Shown: one piece after another, positions 4,604-62,855 of the stretch
Numbering within the stretch: position 1 is the first letter of the stretch
How the letters are laid out: each line of letters starts with the position of its first letter
Source of the DNA: a virus
Lineage: Duplodnaviria; Caudoviricetes
IMG/VR virus record: IMGVR_UViG_3300037558_002528
Span: 1-62,876 of that record
Length of the DNA stretch: 62,876 nt
Strand: one strand, 5' to 3'
Program-made: the position numbers and the translations under genes
Notes under the pieces: model-generated
Told to the model about the DNA's origin: nothing
Seen by the model: only the letters and a program-made list of their open reading frames with translations
The model's database searches: none

Positions 4604-4881
4604 GCAGCACCACCTTTCTGCGGGCGCATGGCGTCAAGAATCTCGCGCAGCTTCATGCCCGGGACGCCTGATACCGCATACATCACGCAGTCCTTGCTCT
4701 CACCATCGATGACGATCTCGGCGAGACGCGGGTGGCTCGCCAGCACGTCCAGCCGCGCGGTCTCTGCTTGCTGCTGCACCAGCACCACGCGCAGTGCAAC
4801 CAGGTCCTCGCGCGTGACAGGGGCAACGCCGTTCTCGCAGCTGGCGATCAGGTGGTCGATCTTTTCCAAGTTCATGATCAT
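4600..4881 (-). CDS. Phage hypothetical protein
   Basis: ATGA-coupled to rtcB stop. Confidence 0.6.
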   Translation of the reverse strand: MIMNLEKIDHLIASCENGVAPVTREDLVALRVVLVQQQAETARLDVLASHPRLAEIVIDGESKDCVMYAVSGVPGMKLREILDAMRPQKGGAA

Positions 4882-6098
4882 CCCTTCACGCACAGGACCT
4901 GCTTGAGGGTATGCACCACCTCAACCAGATCAGATTGAGCGGCCATCACCGCATCGATATCCTTATAGGCAGCCGGGGTCTCGTCCAGCACCTCAGCATC
5001 CTTGCGGCATTCGACGCCGGCCGTGGCCGCGATGTGATCCTCGATCGTGAACTGCTTGCGCGCTTCGTTGCGCGACATCTTGCGCCCTGCACCGTGTGAG
5101 CAGGAGCAGAAGGCCTCGCGCTCGCCCTTCCCGCGCACGATGAACGACTTGGCACCCATACTGCCGGGAATGATCCCGAGTCGCCCTTCGTGGGCGTCGA
5201 CCGCACCCTTGCGCGTGACCATCACGTTTTCGCCGAAGTGGCGTTCCCACGAAACATAGTTGTGGTGGCAGTTCACTGCCTCGCAGTCGCACGTGAAGGG
5301 CTTCGGTATCGCCTGGTGCAGGGCCACCAGCGCCGCCTGCATCATCAGCTCGCGATTGATCCGGGCAAAGCCCTGGGCCCAGCCGACGGCCTCGAAATAG
5401 TCATCGAAGAGGTTGGAGCCTTGCGGGATGTAGGCCAGGTCCTGGTCGGGCAGGTTGATGAACCAGCGCTGCATATCGCGCTTGGCGGCCTCGATGAAGT
5501 AGCTTCCGATAGCATTGCCGATGCCACGGGAACCGGAATGCAGCATGATCCAGACGCGCTGCTGCTCATCCAGGCACAGCTCCACAAAGTGGTTACCGGT
5601 GCCTAGGGTGCCGGCGTGCGTGACTGCGCGCTCGGCCGGCCGCGACAGCTTCGGATGCTTGTGGGCCAGGACCGGCAGGAAGTCCATTTGCCGGCGCAGC
5701 GCTTCCGACGCGCCGTAGGGCGACTCGCCCCAGGCGCCGCGATCACCCGGGCCACCGTTGTTGGTCCGGCCATGGGGAATTGCTGCCTCGATCGCGCTGC
5801 GCAGCGGGCCCAAGTTGTCCGGGAGGTCCGAGGCCACGAGCGTGGTGCGCTGCGCGGCCATCCCGCAGCCGATGTCCACGCCGACAGCGGCCGGGATGAC
5901 GGCGCCCTTGGTGGCGATCACGCTGCCCACGGTGGCGCCCATGCCCCAGTGCACATCGGGCATCGCGGCCACGTGCTTATGGATGAAGGGCAGGCTGGCC
6001 AGGTTGCGCAGCTGCTGCTTGGCTGCGTCTTCTACCTGCACGCCACGCGTCCAGGCTTTGATGGGTTTTCCGGTGCTGTCGATGATTTCGAAGGTCAT
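4878..6098 (-). CDS. rtcB: RtcB-family RNA 3'-phosphate/5'-OH ligase
   Basis: MPDVH, VGVDIGCG, GTLGTGNHFVE, HSGSRG, HHNY, PGSMG, HGAGR, DETPAAYK motifs all intact. Confidence 0.95.
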   Translation of the reverse strand: MTFEIIDSTGKPIKAWTRGVQVEDAAKQQLRNLASLPFIHKHVAAMPDVHWGMGATVGSVIATKGAVIPAAVGVDIGCGMAAQRTTLVASDLPDNLGPLRSAIEAAIPHGRTNNGGPGDRGAWGESPYGASEALRRQMDFLPVLAHKHPKLSRPAERAVTHAGTLGTGNHFVELCLDEQQRVWIMLHSGSRGIGNAIGSYFIEAAKRDMQRWFINLPDQDLAYIPQGSNLFDDYFEAVGWAQGFARINRELMMQAALVALHQAIPKPFTCDCEAVNCHHNYVSWERHFGENVMVTRKGAVDAHEGRLGIIPGSMGAKSFIVRGKGEREAFCSCSHGAGRKMSRNEARKQFTIEDHIAATAGVECRKDAEVLDETPAAYKDIDAVMAAQSDLVEVVHTLKQVLCVKG

Positions 6099-19120: not shown

Positions 19121-19804
19121 TTAGAAGTGTTCTCTCTGCAATAGAACGACACGACCAATCACAATGCACGTCGCCTGAGTGCATTCGTGCCGGTGATAGC
19201 GCTTCTGGTCCGGGTTATCCGAAACCAGGAACCATCGACCAAAGTCGCGCACCATGCGCTTGATGATGTCTTCGCCATCAAAGTTGATCGCATAGACCTC
19301 ACCATCCTTCGGGACGGTGTCCGCGACGTTGATGACGACCGTATCCCCATCGGACATGGTTGGTTCCATACTCTCACCCTTGACCCCCACGGCGATGAGC
19401 TTGGCGGCGCTGTATCCCTTCTTAAGCAGCCATTCCTTTCGGAAAGTGATCGGACGGCCTTCGTCCGGCACCTCGATTGATTCGAAGCCGGTGATGCCGG
19501 CAGACAGTTTCAACTTCACTTTTTTTATTTCTATAAAGTCGGGGTTGTCTGGATCGTGCTCGATAACCCTGGTGTAGTTCTTCGGCAACGCGGGCGCCTC
19601 GGCCTCGCCGTAGCGGAGAAACACTTCCGACACGCCCAGGTACTCCGCCGTCAGGCGAAGATTGTCCCCTCGCGGCTCGGAAGCGCCAGCGATCCACTTT
19701 TGCACGGCCTGCGGGCTGACCCCGACGAATCGGGCCATCTCGGACTGGTTGCCACCGTTCTTGGCATTCAGTGCCTGGCGTATGCGGTCATTCATATTTT
19801 CCAT
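19121..19804 (-). CDS. CI-like repressor (XRE HTH plus S24 autoprotease)
   Basis: NQSEMARFVGVSPQAVQKW HTH, SAG cleavage site, VKGESMEP, IIKR; start may be 19795. Confidence 0.93.
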   Translation of the reverse strand: MENMNDRIRQALNAKNGGNQSEMARFVGVSPQAVQKWIAGASEPRGDNLRLTAEYLGVSEVFLRYGEAEAPALPKNYTRVIEHDPDNPDFIEIKKVKLKLSAGITGFESIEVPDEGRPITFRKEWLLKKGYSAAKLIAVGVKGESMEPTMSDGDTVVINVADTVPKDGEVYAINFDGEDIIKRMVRDFGRWFLVSDNPDQKRYHRHECTQATCIVIGRVVLLQREHF

Positions 19805-19815
19805 TCTCGCGAGAT

Positions 19816-19890
19816 TACAAATAGCCGTTGTAAATTGCACTGCAAATATTGGTTGTAGAAATTCGCTCGTTGTTGTAACTTATGGTTGTA
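19816..19890. promoter_or_regulatory. OR-like operators (three 17-bp sites)
   Basis: TACAAA-tagcc-GTTGTA, TGCAAA-tattg-GTTGTA, TGTAAC-ttatg-GTTGTA between divergent cI and cro. Confidence 0.8.
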
Positions 19891-31897: not shown

Positions 31898-31972
31898 TTG
31901 CCCTAAAGATTGCGGTGGTCGGCTGGTCTCCAAAACCGTGCAGCGGCGGTTCGAATCCGTCAGGGCATGCCA
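31898..31972 (+). tRNA. Degenerate tRNA-Trp(CCA)
   Basis: TGCCCT/AGGGCA acceptor, CTCCAAA loop, GGCGG-TTCGAAT-CCGTC T arm, GCCA end; D arm eroded. Confidence 0.55.
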
Positions 31973-31973
31973 T

Positions 31974-32048
31974 GCAGCCGTAGCTCAGTGGTAGAGCTAC
32001 AGCCTTCCAAGCTGAGGACGAAGGGTTCGATTCCCACCGGCTGCTCCA
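31974..32048 (+). tRNA. tRNA-Gly(TCC), with mismatches in the T stem
   Basis: GCAGCCG/CGGCTGC acceptor, GCTC/GAGC D stem, CTTCCAA loop, TTCGATT, TCCA end. Confidence 0.8.
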
Positions 32049-36764: not shown

Positions 36765-38207
36765 ATGACCCGCAAATCGAAGCGATCTGCAGGCCACGCC
36801 GGCGCACGCCAGCAGACCAACGACTCGTTCCAGAACGCCCAGGCCCGCCTGGGCTGGGGCACGAACAACCAGTCCTCGGGCGCTACCTACTCGCTGTCGT
36901 ACCAAAGCCGAAACCGCGTGCAGCTGGAGGCCGCCTATCGCGGATCCTGGATCGTTCGGGCGGCCGTGGACGCCATCCCAGAGGACATGACCCGCTGCGG
37001 CGTGGAGATGTCGGGCATCGACCCGGCCTCCATCACCGAGATGGAGACTGCCATGGTCTCCCTGGGGATCTGGGACAAGTTGTGCGAGACCGGCAAGTGG
37101 GCGCGCCTGTATGGCGGCGCCATCGGCGTCATGCTGATCGAGGGCCAGGACCTGACCACACCGCTGCGCGTCGAGTCGATCGGCAAGGGCCAGTTCAAAG
37201 GGCTGGTGGTGCTGGACCGTTGGATGGTGGCGCCGCCGGTGGGCAAGGTGGTCACCGAGTTCGGCCCTGACATGGGCAAGCCGGTGTTCTACGACATCCT
37301 GGCCGAGTTCATGGGCCTGCCGAAGGGACGCATTCACTACAGCCGGGTCATCCGTCTGGAGGGCGATGATCTGCCGTATTACCAGCGCATCGCGGAGAAC
37401 GGCTGGGGCCTGTCTGTACTGGAACCTCTCTGGGACCGCCTGATCGCCTTTGATAGTGCCTCGGTCGGTGCCGGCCAACTGGTCTACAAGGCGCACCTGC
37501 GCACCTACTCCATTGAAGGCTTGCGGCAGATTATCGCGACGGGAGGGGATGCCCTGAAGGGTCTGCTGTCGCAGATCGAGTTCACCCGGCTTTCCCAGAC
37601 CAATGAGGGCATGACGGTGATCGACTCGACCGACAAATTCGAGGCGCACACCTATACCTTCGCCGGCCTCTCGGACATGCTGATCCAGTTCGCGCAGCAG
37701 CTGTCGGGCGCCCTGGGCATCCCACTGTCTCGCATCTTCGGGCAGTCCCCGGCCGGCCTGAGCGATACCGGCGAAGGGCCGCGGCGCCAGTACCACGAGA
37801 AGGTGCACCAGAAGCAGGAGAAAGACCTGCGCACGCCGCTGCAGCGCCTGTTCTCGGTGATGTCTATGTCGGTGCTGGGCAAAGAGCTCGATCCGAGCTT
37901 CCAATTTGCGTTCAAGACGCTGGACGAACCTACCGAGGTGGAGAAGGCGGAAGTGGCCGACAAGAAAACCACCACAGTGGTGAGTGCCCTGGACGCGAAC
38001 CTGATCAAGCGCTCTACGGCCATGAAAGAGCTCAAGGGCATGGCATCAGGCACCGGCATGTTCGGCAACATCACGGATGAAGAGATCCAAGATGCCGAGA
38101 AGCAAGAGCAGGACGAACCGCCCCCGGGCGCAGGGCTGGATCTGCCTGACCTGAGCTCCCTCACGACCAAGGACTCACTGCTCAAGCGGCTCTGGAAAAG
38201 ACGATGA
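36765..38207 (+). CDS. Portal protein (DUF1073 type)
   Basis: Position after TerL; WARLYGG, IHYSRVIR, GWGLSVLE, IPLSRIFGQSPAGL. Confidence 0.88.
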   Translation: MTRKSKRSAGHAGARQQTNDSFQNAQARLGWGTNNQSSGATYSLSYQSRNRVQLEAAYRGSWIVRAAVDAIPEDMTRCGVEMSGIDPASITEMETAMVSLGIWDKLCETGKWARLYGGAIGVMLIEGQDLTTPLRVESIGKGQFKGLVVLDRWMVAPPVGKVVTEFGPDMGKPVFYDILAEFMGLPKGRIHYSRVIRLEGDDLPYYQRIAENGWGLSVLEPLWDRLIAFDSASVGAGQLVYKAHLRTYSIEGLRQIIATGGDALKGLLSQIEFTRLSQTNEGMTVIDSTDKFEAHTYTFAGLSDMLIQFAQQLSGALGIPLSRIFGQSPAGLSDTGEGPRRQYHEKVHQKQEKDLRTPLQRLFSVMSMSVLGKELDPSFQFAFKTLDEPTEVEKAEVADKKTTTVVSALDANLIKRSTAMKELKGMASGTGMFGNITDEEIQDAEKQEQDEPPPGAGLDLPDLSSLTTKDSLLKRLWKRR

Positions 38208-38953
38208 TCATCACCCTGGATCGCCGGAAGAAGAACCGGAACCCGGTGCGCACCACTGGCGCCGAACAGCGCTACGCCATGCAACTAAAGAAGGTGGCGG
38301 CGCAGGTCCAGGCGATCATCAGCCCGTTCGAGCCCGGTGACATCCGGTCGGTGCCGACCATCCAGCAGCTACTGGATGCCTACGCCCAGATGCTCAAGCC
38401 GTGGGCCACCCAGACCGCCAGCAACATGCTGATGGACGTGGCGCTGCGCGATGAGAGCGCCTGGAGGACCATGGCCAAGGAAATGTCTCGGGCGCTACGC
38501 CTGGAGATCGCCGAGGCACCGACGGGCCGGGTGCTGCAGGATCTGCTGGCCGAGCAGGTCACCCTGATCACCAGCCTGCCGGTGGAGGCCGGCCAGCGCG
38601 TGCATGAGCTGACGCTCAAGGGCCTGGAGGACTCCACGCGCGCCAGCGAGATCGCCAAGGAGATCATGCGCTCGGGCGAGGTGACCAAGAGCCGGGCGCT
38701 GCTGATCGCCCAGACCGAGGTCAGCCGCACGGCCACCTCGCTCACCCAGGCCCGGGCCGAGTACGTCGGGAGCCCAGGGTATATCTGGCGCACCAGCGGT
38801 GACAGCGATGTTCGTGAGGATCATCGGGAACTGGAAGGCCAGTTCATCCCATGGAACCAGCCGCCCATCGCGGACAAGCGCACCGGCCGCCGGGCGCACG
38901 CCGGCTGCATCTATCGGTGCCGCTGTTTCCCAGAAGTAGTTATTCCTGATTGA
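38204..38953 (+). CDS. MuF/SPP1 gp7-like minor head protein
   Basis: RALLIAQTE, YIWRTSGDSDVREDH, HAGCIYRCRC. Confidence 0.9.
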   Translation: MIITLDRRKKNRNPVRTTGAEQRYAMQLKKVAAQVQAIISPFEPGDIRSVPTIQQLLDAYAQMLKPWATQTASNMLMDVALRDESAWRTMAKEMSRALRLEIAEAPTGRVLQDLLAEQVTLITSLPVEAGQRVHELTLKGLEDSTRASEIAKEIMRSGEVTKSRALLIAQTEVSRTATSLTQARAEYVGSPGYIWRTSGDSDVREDHRELEGQFIPWNQPPIADKRTGRRAHAGCIYRCRCFPEVVIPD

Positions 38954-38955
38954 CC

Positions 38956-39471
38956 ATGGCACGACATATTCACGTTCATTTCTACACCGGTGACGCCGGC
39001 GAGTGGAAGGAGGGCGATCACCCGCGCGCGGAGAACGGCCAGTTCGGTACCGGTGCCGCTGGCGCCGCAGCGGGGCAGGGCAGTGTCACACTGCGCGGCA
39101 ATGAGCTTGGCGGCTATGCCGATATCAAGGAGCTGCGCCAGAAGGCCCTGGTCTATGCCGAGCGGTTCATCGGAAAGCGCTTCAAGAACGCGGCCACCGG
39201 CAACGAGATCCAGGTGACGCGCTCGGGCGTGAAGCACACGGTGTTCGGCAGCCGAGACGACCTGATCAAGAGCATCCCTGCGATCCCCGATCTGCTGGAG
39301 AGATCCAAGTTGGTGGCCACCTCGCCGGACAAGCGCGGCGACCCGAACATCCTGGCGGTGGAGACCTACGAGGCCCAGCTGCATCTGGCCGGGGAGCCGC
39401 ACAAGGTGATTTTGACGGTCAAGGCGTACCAGGACGGGCGCCGCTACTACGACCATGGCTTGGTGAAATGA
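38956..39471 (+). CDS. MuF-associated cargo protein: HPRxxxGQF motif plus LPD3/BECR-like domain
   Basis: WKEGDHPRAENGQFG; NAATGNEIQVTRSGVKH...IPDLLE...VILTVK...YYDH. Confidence 0.65.
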   Translation: MARHIHVHFYTGDAGEWKEGDHPRAENGQFGTGAAGAAAGQGSVTLRGNELGGYADIKELRQKALVYAERFIGKRFKNAATGNEIQVTRSGVKHTVFGSRDDLIKSIPAIPDLLERSKLVATSPDKRGDPNILAVETYEAQLHLAGEPHKVILTVKAYQDGRRYYDHGLVK

Positions 39472-39549
39472 AAAAGGACCGCCAATTGACTTTCAAGTCT
39501 CGGTTCCTCGCACGCTGCGGAGGCGTGGTGGTTTAAACCTTGGCGATCC
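39471..39549 (-). ncRNA. Candidate ~80-nt structured RNA convergent on the LPD3-like gene
   Basis: Minus-strand TATAAT at 39557-39562, paired ends GGATCGCCAA/TTGGCGGTCC, terminal T5. Confidence 0.55.
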
Positions 39550-39588
39550 AGAAACAATTATACGCCGCTTCCCGAAAACTGAAGATCC

Positions 39589-39612
39589 AGCCCGCCCCGC
39601 GCGGGCTTTTTT
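39589..39612 (+). terminator. Intrinsic terminator
   Basis: AGCCCGC-ccc-GCGCGGGCT hairpin followed by a T tract. Confidence 0.65.
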
Positions 39613-39625
39613 ACGTGCCTACGCC

Positions 39626-40414
39626 ATGAGCAAGCCCTGCAGCTGCAAAAAATGTAGCGCCCCCGCTACGAAGACGACCGATTCCATCACCGCCAGCGGC
39701 TTCCTGACCAATGAGCAGCTGGGGCCGAAGCAGTCGATCACCGCCGAGGGCTTCCTGCTGTGCGAGGAGGTGCCCATCGCCCGCATCGGCCCGCAGATGT
39801 ACGCGGCCATCGAGCTTCCGGACCTGGAGGACAAGGACGGCGTGATCGAGGTCGAGCGCGATGCCGACGTCGTTTTCAGCGCCGAGACCATTGCCAGCTT
39901 CACCGGCAAGCCCGTGACCATCGAGCATCCCTCCGAATTGGTCACGCCGCTGACCTGGAAGAACGTCGCCAAGGGCACCGTGCACAACGTGCGGCGCGGC
40001 GAGGGCGACAAGGCAAATCTGCTGCTGGCCGACCTGCTGATCACTGACCAGGAGCTGATTGAGCTCATCGTCAAGAAGAAGCTGAAGGAGATCAGCTGCG
40101 GCTACGACGCCGAATACGAGCAAATCGCGCCTGGGCGGGCGCGGCAATCGACCATCGTGGGCAACCACGTGGCGTTTGTAGAAAGCGCCCGCTGTGGACC
40201 TGTGTGTTCTGTGCAGGATTCTGGAAAATTGATTGGAGAAACCCCCATGGCTGTAAAGCTGACCAAGTCGGCCATTGCCGACAAACTGCGCAAGATTTTC
40301 AACACCCGTGACTCGGAGGCCCTGGAGAAGGTCCTGGACGAGATGCCCGACGGCGCCGGTGGTGACGACAAGGACACCCATGTCCACATCCACATGGGGG
40401 GGGCGAACCGGTGA
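39626..40414 (+). CDS. DUF2213 prohead protease domain (5' part, ends after a G8 run)
   Basis: TAEGFLLC..VPIARIG, GKPVTIEHP, EISCGYDA, NHVAFV..ARCG. Confidence 0.85.
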   Translation: MSKPCSCKKCSAPATKTTDSITASGFLTNEQLGPKQSITAEGFLLCEEVPIARIGPQMYAAIELPDLEDKDGVIEVERDADVVFSAETIASFTGKPVTIEHPSELVTPLTWKNVAKGTVHNVRRGEGDKANLLLADLLITDQELIELIVKKKLKEISCGYDAEYEQIAPGRARQSTIVGNHVAFVESARCGPVCSVQDSGKLIGETPMAVKLTKSAIADKLRKIFNTRDSEALEKVLDEMPDGAGGDDKDTHVHIHMGGANR

Positions 40415-57025: not shown

Positions 57026-57108
57026 ATTTGTATTTAACTAATTTTTCTTAATTTTACAGGTTTGCTTTTCTGCCCGCCCAGCGCGGGCTTTTTCATTTTG
57101 GGGGCTCA

Positions 57109-61376: not shown

Positions 61377-62597
61377 CTATGCAACCAGGTGCAGCGGCGG
61401 CCTGGCGGCTTCAACCAGCCGATCGATGTAATCTGACCAGTCCTGCATCATCTTGGTCCGCTCTGCGAGAAACTTGGCACGGTCGTATGCTTTATCCACC
61501 TTATTGCCCTTGGCGTGCGAGAGCTGCAGGTCCACTACCTCATGCCGATAGCCAAGCTCCTGCTTGAGCACGCCCATGGCAAGAGACCGGAAGCCATGCC
61601 CAGTCATCCTGCCGCCATAGCCGATGTTCTCCAGCACTTTCAGGATTGCACCGTCCGACATGTGGGTATCCGGACGGCGCTGGTTTGGGAAGACAAATTG
61701 GTGTCGTCCTGAAATTGGCTGCATCTCTCGGAAGAGTGCAACGCATTGCCAGGAGAGGGGTACCACGTGGCCGCGCCCCTTTTTCATCCGCTCAGGTGGA
61801 ATATCCCATACCGCCTTATCCAGATCCGGCTCCGTCCAGGGCACAGCGATCAGCTCGGTTGTCCGGACGAATGTCCTCATCATCAGCCACAGAGCTACCC
61901 GCGTGGCCGGGAACATGTGGTGCTTGCTGTTGACCAGGTCCTTGATGAACTGGGGAAATTCCTCGACGGTGATCGACGCGAAGTGGCCCTTCTTGGGCTT
62001 TTTCATCACGTCCTTGAGCGCGGCAGCCGGGTTGCCCTGGGTATCGCCGCAGACAATTGCAAAATTGAAAATACGGGCAACCATGCCACGGCAGCGGCTG
62101 GCGATCTCCAGTGCGCCGCGCTTCTCGATCTCGCGGAAGACCAGCAGCAGGCGCTGGGGGGTGATCTTGGCAATCGGATCCTGGCCGATCACAGGGAAGA
62201 CATCGGTCACAAGGCGATGCAGGTTCTCTTTCGCCGTGCCATCGCCCCATTCATCGCTGGCGGCCATGTGCGCATGCCACTCCCTGGCCACCACCTCAAA
62301 CGTTCGGGCCTGGGCCACTACTTGGGCGATCTTGCTGATCTGTTTCTCGACTGCAGGGTCATTGCCAGCCTTCAACATCCGGCGGGCGTCTTCCCATTTT
62401 TCCCTGGCATCGGCCAGCGAGACATCCGGATAGGTGCCCAGAGAAAGAGACTTTTGCTTGCCCCCGAACCGGTAAGCCCCAGTCCAGTACTTGCCGCCGC
62501 CAGGGTGGACTGACAGGGATAGTCCGCGCGCGTCGGACAACTTGTAGAGCTTTTCTTTCGGCTTTGCAGCACGGCATCCGGCGTCGGTAAGGGGCAT
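61377..62597 (-). CDS. Tyrosine integrase, P4-like with arm-binding domain
   Basis: MPLTD...AKP..K.YKLSD..GL, R(TTE), HGFR, QLSH, AYDR. Confidence 0.95.
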   Translation of the reverse strand: MPLTDAGCRAAKPKEKLYKLSDARGLSLSVHPGGGKYWTGAYRFGGKQKSLSLGTYPDVSLADAREKWEDARRMLKAGNDPAVEKQISKIAQVVAQARTFEVVAREWHAHMAASDEWGDGTAKENLHRLVTDVFPVIGQDPIAKITPQRLLLVFREIEKRGALEIASRCRGMVARIFNFAIVCGDTQGNPAAALKDVMKKPKKGHFASITVEEFPQFIKDLVNSKHHMFPATRVALWLMMRTFVRTTELIAVPWTEPDLDKAVWDIPPERMKKGRGHVVPLSWQCVALFREMQPISGRHQFVFPNQRRPDTHMSDGAILKVLENIGYGGRMTGHGFRSLAMGVLKQELGYRHEVVDLQLSHAKGNKVDKAYDRAKFLAERTKMMQDWSDYIDRLVEAARPPLHLVA

Positions 62598-62760: not shown

Positions 62761-62778
62761 TTGGCGGAGACGGAGGGA
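62761..62778. repeat. Right att core
   Basis: Identical to 2474-2491; overlaps the tRNA 3' end. Confidence 0.95.
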
Positions 62779-62855
62779 TTCGAACCCTCGATACAGGTTT
62801 AAGCCCGTATGCTTCCTTAGCAGGGAAGTGCCTTCGACCACTCGGCCACGTCTCC
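62762..62855 (-). tRNA. Host tRNA-Ser(GCT)
   Basis: GGAGACG acceptor, CTTCC-CTGCTAA-GGAAG anticodon arm, long variable arm, GGTTCGAATCC, GCCA end. Confidence 0.96.

Follow-up and report, generated by a model that had tools for sequence, protein, structure and literature searches.

The viral DNA analysed here (the window) comprises positions 1 to 62,876, the full 62,876 nucleotides (nt), of the IMG/VR virus record IMGVR_UViG_3300037558_002528 (Duplodnaviria; Caudoviricetes). On its plus strand lies a head module with the order large terminase, portal, MuF, LPD3, a 154-nt gap, DUF2213, cement protein and major capsid protein. Within the gap, on the opposite strand and running towards the gene for the LPD3 protein, positions 39471-39549 very probably constitute a genuine small-RNA gene, as judged from the fold of the sequence and its conservation among relatives. 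The features of the locus are the following.

38204..38953, plus strand: gene for a MuF-like minor head protein (Pfam PF04233, E 4.2e-14), the stop of which lies 2 nt ahead of the LPD3 start
38956..39471, plus strand: stand-alone LPD3 gene, 171 aa (Pfam PF18798, E 2.4e-28), with its ATG at 38956 and its stop TGA at 39469-39471
39471..39549, minus strand: structured small RNA of ~79 nt, predicted from its fold, a match to covariance model R1 and covariation
39557..39562, minus strand: predicted -10 box TATAAT of the RNA gene, kept as TAnnnT in 20/24 distinct copies
39578..39583, minus strand: weak -35 candidate TTCAGT (3/6, 15-nt spacer), with a negative two-hexamer scan
39589..39613, plus strand: intrinsic terminator with a 7-pair stem, 6 G-C, and a T-run
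39626..40414, plus strand: gene for a DUF2213 head protein, the next late gene (Pfam PF09979, E 2.8e-48)

The TATAAT box is separated from the start of the RNA by a spacer of 7 nt (39556-39550). The RNA is closed by a stem, P1, in which GGAUCGCCAA (39549-39540) pairs with UUGGCGGUCC (39485-39476), and this is followed inwards by P2, in which 39539-39536 pairs with 39505-39502, and by a 4-nt bulge UAAA at 39535-39532. Two inner arms are present, namely the P3 hairpin at 39531-39506 and a small extra hairpin at 39499-39488. A U-run, UUUUU, occupies 39475-39471 and its final U corresponds to the A of the LPD3 stop codon, the overlap between the RNA and the LPD3 open reading frame (ORF) being this one base. 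The calculated folding energy of the minus strand was -29.1 kcal/mol (z -3.1) and that of the plus strand -28.3 kcal/mol (z -1.8). Model R1 matched 39471-39548 with 53.2 bits (E 3.3e-12), ARAGORN found no tRNA or tmRNA at the site, and elsewhere in the record a repeat search returned only a 22-nt match to the terminator part, at 57072-57093. Downstream of LPD3 an ORF of the size of an immunity gene was absent, the next ORF being that of the DUF2213 head protein. The locus is thus as the initial annotation, made from the letters of the sequence alone, had described it: a perfect TATAAT on the minus strand 7 nt before an RNA with paired ends, two inner arms and a U tract, a weak -35, hardly any overlap with the ORF and no protein immunity gene following it.

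The initial annotation had further proposed that homologues be collected and inspected for a conserved downstream RNA with covariation, and such an RNA was found. Downstream of the LPD3 stop codon the DNA of relatives repeatedly showed the same unit. A covariance model, R1, was built from six copies on a MAFFT seed alignment with a hand-set structure and was run over 42 sources, ten sources being omitted as duplicates. It matched 26 of the 29 sources with a stand-alone LPD3, every time on the strand opposite LPD3, and missed L016, L035 and L037, where other folded units occupy that place. In total 28 distinct RNA copies were obtained from prophages of Burkholderiales and Neisseria, between which the identity of LPD3 itself is only 46-50%. 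Standard pairs filled 95.5% of 601 cells in these copies, compared to 31-46% when the 3' partners were slid by 1-3 columns, and changes on both sides were observed in 18 of the 22 pairs. The observed covariation score was reached by none of 500 shuffles, with a similar outcome for the first copy set; because the 28-copy alignment was fitted to the model, it is somewhat biased towards the structure.

The architecture that emerges is that of a rod composed of P1, a conserved G.U, P2, a 4-nt bulge, the P3 hairpin and, in most relatives, a 7-nt 3' bulge. Across copies P1 holds 8-10 pairs with a bulge or mismatch at a single fixed place, while P2 holds 5 pairs, the first of which is the G.U retained in 25 of 28 copies. 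The 4-nt bulge after P2 reads UYAA, the loop of P3 has 7 nt and ends in GCA, and the inner part is closed in most relatives by the 3' bulge ACUYAAA. In the window and in L020 a small hairpin stands in place of this 3' bulge, which is why two inner arms are seen in the window. Eleven unpaired columns were at least 90% identical among the 28 copies. The hexamer UYAAAC occurs twice in the RNA, once in each single-stranded segment (alignment A6, columns 14-19 and 67-73); the window copy keeps it only at 39535-39530, the 3' one having been lost to the inserted hairpin. When R1 was run over 151 Burkholderiales genomes only the centre genome was matched, and the RNA is therefore no common host element.

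The assignment of the RNA to the minus strand was evaluated from the conservation of its promoter and from the pattern of base changes. Among 24 distinct copies the -10 box was TATAAT in 12 and a 5-of-6 variant in 8, all of the form TAnnnT and located 6-12 nt upstream. In control windows of the same loci the chance rate is 1.7% for a 5-of-6 match and 0.135% for a perfect match. The four copies that lack a box are Neisseria copies located directly downstream of another RNA gene. In several relatives a TTGnnn was also observed at 16-17 nt from the -10. Within the consensus pairs, G.U and A.C cells numbered 36 and 4, respectively, on the minus strand, and 18 and 4 after exclusion of the conserved G.U. 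Taken together, these patterns place the RNA on the minus strand. Several results pull the other way. A two-hexamer promoter scan of the window returned nothing at the RNA gene, on account of the weak -35, which matches at 3/6 with a 15-nt spacer where sigma-70 promoters have 16-18 nt. Of the 28 copies only 16 have four or more U within the 6 nt that follow P1. Folding energy did not separate the strands either, the minus strand having the lower energy in 15 of 28 copies (Wilcoxon p 0.54). Of the 24 public runs listed, all kept as contigs, four were compared with the window. One of them, the RNA library X3, contained one 684-nt contig of a ~93% relative that spans 39013-39696 and shows no differences in 39439-39585 among the differences listed (40; 32 further); as it carries no strand or end information it is no evidence of transcription. 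No match was obtained in the public run X2.

The relation between the RNA and LPD3 was investigated further by comparing loci that carry both, one or neither. In Burkholderia phage Magia, which has the same head module, LPD3 and the gap are both missing and the MuF stop is immediately followed by the start of the protease gene, while in phages vB_E192a, BgManors32 and 'Phage WC36-2' both LPD3 and the RNA are present. The DUF2213 homologues of BgManors32 and Magia, both RefSeq relatives, are annotated as head maturation protease. As both elements are absent in Magia and both present in the relatives, they behave as one inserted cassette, and from these comparisons of sequence the RNA and LPD3 form a two-gene cassette between the MuF gene and the head protease gene of temperate phages. 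A search with a DNA pattern for the RNA gave 12 viral contigs with LPD3 adjacent in 10; tblastn located LPD3 in nine, L062 is the contig of L024 and has LPD3 adjacent, and L063 and L069 are without it. A scan of metagenomes with the RNA pattern returned 9 stretches, 6 with LPD3 and 3 without, and two of the latter repeat L063 and L069 while the third is L076. The L063 provirus, rated complete, gave no match to PF18798 in six frames, and a positive control on the window did find LPD3.

In the LPD3-less contexts the TAnnnT box is kept in 3/3. These stand-alone RNAs adjoin a serine recombinase and a SRAP gene, or repressor-like genes, and no convergent gene ending at the RNA was evident in the three contexts. 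In the context shared by L069 and L074 a hairpin resembling an intrinsic terminator, seen by eye, follows the RNA on its own strand. Copy number also varies. In L076, a 2.7-kb contig without LPD3, two different RNA copies are directly tandem (478-548 and 554-622), and in L014 two copies of the same type as in the window, type A, follow LPD3 at 2522-2592 and 2746-2815, ~150 nt apart, with the LPD3 ORF extending ~40 nt into the RNA. In the Neisseria loci two or three RNA genes of 70-90 nt form arrays, which lie downstream of LPD3 and are convergent to it. The linkage to LPD3 is accordingly strong in the sequences compared, though not absolute. That the two travel together in many prophages suggests that the RNA is a partner or antidote of LPD3, and the idea of a dedicated LPD3-RNA cassette put forward in the initial annotation fits their co-presence, their joint absence in Magia and the orphan and tandem RNA copies.

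A second type of folded unit, type B, was found after LPD3 in Pasteurellaceae and Neisseria loci. It consists of a long closing stem around AAGAGGU, a hairpin and AAGGUGCUGG, as judged by eye and from single folds, and is represented by eight distinct copies. On the minus strand of the respective loci these units are located as follows.

L035, 2468-2617, minus strand: type B unit
L037, 2484-2634, minus strand: type B unit
L039 and L040, 2469-2817, minus strand: type B units
L013, L015 and L044, 2546-2700, minus strand: type B units

In L039 and L040 the order after LPD3 on the minus strand is B, A, B. A small ORF within the type B RNAs was considered and rejected, as the AUG after AAGAGGU is AUG, UUG, ACG or missing among the copies when these are compared by eye.

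More distant loci encode large proteins in which LPD3 is an internal domain, including combinations of Acb1-LPD3, PBECR1-LPD3-DUF6900 and LPD37-ART-LPD3 (ART, ADP-ribosyltransferase) as well as a portal-LPD3 fusion. A unit of promoter plus stem was visible on the opposite strand after the LPD3 domain in four of these.

L056, 3-2327: LPD3 behind a portal
L019, 1161-4280: LPD3 behind the anti-CBASS protein Acb1
L049, 978-4280: LPD3 behind PBECR1
L051, 3-4328: LPD3 behind LPD37 and an ADP-ribosyltransferase

In these polyvalent genes the RNA-like unit lies within the reading frame, on the opposite strand. In order to quantify such units a strict composite was defined as a -10-like box, a closing stem of at least 8/9 pairs and a T-rich tail. 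It was found after LPD3 in 7 of 12 distant or non-type-A loci, compared to 356 of 2532 control windows, the picked position being doubtful in one of the seven, L058. In the fused loci L019, L051, L056 and L058 the box coincides by eye with Ser-Ile codons, AGT-AT(A/C), in 4/4. A model R2, run with filters off over 15 other loci, detected neither type B nor the polyvalent-type units, and homology of these with type A is therefore not demonstrable.

The LPD3 protein of the window matched Pfam PF18798 over residues 56-165 with 99 bits (cut-off 27; E 2.4e-28), and its gene directly follows that of MuF, so that the linkage to MuF claimed in the initial annotation holds. Forty homologues were gathered and all 18 members of an alignment of them, A1, matched PF18798. 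An AlphaFold2 model (predicted local distance difference test score 80) is well folded over residues 44-171 and shows helices followed by a four-stranded antiparallel sheet. The protein is basic, with an isoelectric point (pI) of 9.1, or 9.5 for the domain, and a pI of ~9.5 was found in 7 of 8 homologues. Invariant residues in A1 are H94, T95, K126, Y138, T154, K156, R162, R163 and H167, and these resemble the residue types given for CdiA-CT Kp342 in the review PMC9086364, which describes that protein as a tRNase of the BECR fold, built of helices and then four strands, with a Lys-Tyr-Thr/His/Arg site. The N-terminal part of LPD3 is disordered and contains the motif W-x-E-x2-HPR-x3-G-x-F-G (residues 16-31) followed by a Gly/Ala-rich linker; the motif is missing in the shortest homologues and perhaps serves in capsid targeting.

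An RNase-like nature of LPD3 is possible. In comparisons with known proteins none of the structural matches was significant. Foldseek, which the initial annotation had proposed as a check, gave no match in the PDB at E <= 0.001, the best E being 0.026. The best template modelling scores were at most 0.33 by query and at most 0.44 by target, and the best matches were weak and NTF2-like. Chain G of 6cp9, the toxin or the immunity chain of a Klebsiella contact-dependent inhibition toxin/immunity complex, was matched with a probability of 0.98 over 54 columns only. A search of PDB sequences with LPD3 returned no match, Foldseek against BFVD returned only other LPD3 domains, and PBECR3 clusters of the protein atlas scored 0.86 against a line of 0.9, a lead only. 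The excerpted text of Iyer et al. 2017 does not place LPD3 among the potentially enzymatic domains and gives no function for it. The description of LPD3 as a BECR-like RNase in the initial annotation thus comes down to leads below threshold, namely the E of 0.026, the 54-column match and the PBECR3 score.

The window is a temperate prophage, with an integrase (61377-62597), a LexA-like repressor (19121-19840) and attachment repeats. Its ends are marked by an 18-nt direct repeat at 2474-2491 and 62761-62778, giving an element of ~60.3 kb, and the repeat sits at the 3' end of a tRNA-Ser gene (62762-62855). The genes flanking the left end are host-like and encode GGDEF/EAL and Cu/Zn superoxide dismutase proteins. 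Inside the prophage, adjoining the left attachment site, lies an RtcB RNA ligase gene (4878-6098, minus strand; Pfam E 1.6e-129); there may be a connection between this RNA-repair enzyme and a possible RNA-directed domain in one phage. Genes for tRNA-Trp and tRNA-Gly are adjacent within the prophage at 31898-32048 (plus strand), immediately ahead of a listed 886-aa reading frame that overlaps them. At 38546-38628 (plus strand), within the coding sequence of MuF, a twister-sister ribozyme model scored 23.7 bits against a gathering score of 34, most likely by chance.

Our preferred reading, held tentatively and with less than even confidence, is that the RNA is directed at LPD3, working in trans as its partner or antidote. 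A constitutive promoter would drive the RNA for as long as the prophage is present, irrespective of late transcription, and owing to the convergent orientation its synthesis in the lysogen would not extend into the late head genes. It would serve as a dedicated LPD3 partner, most likely an antidote or immunity factor, whose conserved unpaired bases bind the basic domain of LPD3. LPD3 would thereby be kept harmless in the producing or lysogenic cell, and LPD3 entering from outside would be neutralised by orphan RNA copies in other prophages. The conserved unpaired bases, together with copies that lack LPD3, bear promoters and are sometimes tandem, argue for action in trans and for sequence-specific recognition. 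An extended version of this reading, which we regard as doubtful, would make LPD3 a virion-delivered effector whose immunity factor is a structured RNA that binds and blocks it in prophage carriers. Orphan and arrayed copies would then protect against incoming LPD3 phages, and the domain and its RNA would have been shuffled together, as one module, into giant polyvalent virion proteins, in whose linker the RNA gene would lie on the opposite strand.

The constant convergent placement of the RNA and the fact that unrelated RNA classes are found in that position too argue instead for a position-dependent antisense role, which these two observations fit at least as well as they fit an LPD3-directed antidote. 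Here the RNA would control LPD3 in cis, in the manner of OOP or of convergent type I systems, by pairing with its complement in the late LPD3 message, either in the 3' untranslated region (UTR) or, in the fused genes, in the coding region. The duplex would be cut and the protective 3' end lost, such that leaky late transcripts are destroyed in the lysogen. Antisense control is the usual role of small convergent phage RNAs, and here the RNA always converges on LPD3, ending at or within its 3' end. The ORF overlaps the RNA by ~40 nt in L014 and the unit lies inside the reading frame in polyvalent genes, while in the window a message ending at the plus-strand terminator (39589-39613) would have a 3' UTR holding the whole complement of the RNA. 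The overlap with the ORF is nevertheless a single base in the window, and a plus-strand terminator is visible by eye in only some relatives. Moreover, a pair acting in cis needs no conserved loop or bulge sequence, yet 11 unpaired columns are conserved at 90% or more, and in three contexts the RNA occurs although LPD3 is absent and no convergent gene is seen to end at it. We hold antisense control in cis to be only slightly less probable than the preferred reading.

The same stand-alone copies, bearing promoters and in one case a terminator of their own and lying near repressor-like and recombinase genes, would also be expected of a prophage small RNA that acts in trans on host or other phage targets by base pairing or by sponging of proteins, its link to LPD3 reflecting only the common descent of a mobile block. 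The existence of tandem and sibling copies is consistent with such an RNA, and the repeated unpaired UYAAAC could be its seed. We nonetheless find it unlikely, as the association with LPD3 persists across very different contexts (the composite in 7/12 against 356/2532), the window copy is without the 3' UYAAAC bulge and the analysis yielded no target. Pairing of the RNA with the start region of LPD3 did not exceed that of shuffles (z -1.6 to +0.5 in 11 loci, for L004 with an approximate start). Very improbable is the remaining alternative, in which the plus strand is the functional one, serving the late message as a structured 3' UTR or as a processing element, or conservation acts at the level of the DNA, and the minus-strand promoter is fortuitous. 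The plus strand folds about equally well and the element sits in a plus-strand transcription unit, but the fixed-distance TAnnnT in 20/24 copies varies exactly like -10 boxes do, and the excess of G.U over A.C (36 vs 4) includes a conserved G.U whose counterpart on the plus strand would be an A.C mismatch. The plus version furthermore has an A-run before it and no U-run after it, whereas the terminator-like hairpin seen by eye in L069 and L074 lies on the strand of the RNA.

The RNA had no match in Rfam 15 at E <= 10 for the window stretch or at E <= 1 for 12 relatives. Sub-threshold matches to Trp-leader and isrK were rejected, as they correspond to the plus-strand terminator hairpin, and so was identity with the Burkholderia small RNAs BTH_s1/s39, the excerpt of PMC4035088 describing a different RNA of the core genome. 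No description was found in literature on LPD3, on polyvalent proteins and noncoding or antisense RNA, on MuF and antisense RNA, or on Burkholderia small RNAs. Neither the RNA family nor its association with a polyvalent-protein domain has been described, while a small convergent phage RNA or an RNA antidote is of a kind already known. The LPD3 domain is widespread among phage head-associated and polyvalent proteins, and the conserved RNA gene is the first experimental handle on it; phage biology gains an undescribed structured RNA family with strong covariation. If the RNA is a protein-directed antidote, RNA-based immunity would extend from abortive-infection toxins to virion-delivered effectors, and the antisense units hidden inside giant phage genes would be explained. 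If it is instead an OOP-like regulator, it would represent a widespread safety catch on the late head operons of temperate phages.

Among known systems, the OOP RNA of lambda (pO-oop-tO) is ~77 nt long, has a constitutive promoter and an intrinsic terminator and acts on cII, to which it is convergent. The RNA described here is likewise short, is preceded by a predicted promoter of its own and converges on a phage protein gene. OOP overlaps the 3' end of the cII coding region, while the overlap here is one base, and we know of no report of a conserved multi-helix fold in OOP, in contrast to the covarying fold (18/22 pairs), the conserved unpaired bases and the copies without a partner gene observed here. 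In the convergent type I pairs txpA/RatA and bsrG/SR4 of Bacillus subtilis, which are prophage-borne, an RNA antidote with a constitutive promoter meets the 3' end of the partner message. The present RNA is also prophage-borne and convergent at the 3' end of its partner, but type I toxins are small hydrophobic peptides whereas LPD3 is a basic alpha+beta domain in a protein of 171 aa that also occurs inside giant virion proteins. The c4 RNA of P1/P7 and the CI RNA of P4 are structured phage immunity RNAs of ~77 nt expressed in the lysogen; their size is similar, but the RNA here matches neither C4 nor any other Rfam family and lies in the head module rather than in an immunity region.

In type III systems such as ToxIN, the antitoxin ToxI is an array of short direct repeats located upstream of the toxin on the same strand, with a terminator in between; the toxin is an endoribonuclease that binds this RNA and processes it. 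A likeness is found in the concept that a protein is neutralised when a structured RNA binds it, and in the tandem RNA units of some loci. The unit here is a single one of 70-80 nt, downstream of LPD3 and on the opposite strand, and the type III-like arrangement proposed in the initial annotation therefore fails in its formal features, there being no repeat array upstream on the same strand. In MuF polymorphic toxins, by definition, the C-terminus of MuF carries a fused toxin domain and the gene downstream encodes an immunity protein. In such cassettes the protecting gene encodes a protein and runs in the same direction, unlike here, and in the window MuF and LPD3 are separate ORFs. Polymorphic toxin/immunity cassettes, MuF-fused phage toxins included, have reportedly been treated by Zhang et al. 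in 2012 and Jamet et al. in 2017. The locus described here resembles them in that the putative protecting gene stands directly after the effector candidate, in its gain and loss as a unit, and in the presence of orphan and arrayed copies of the protecting gene.

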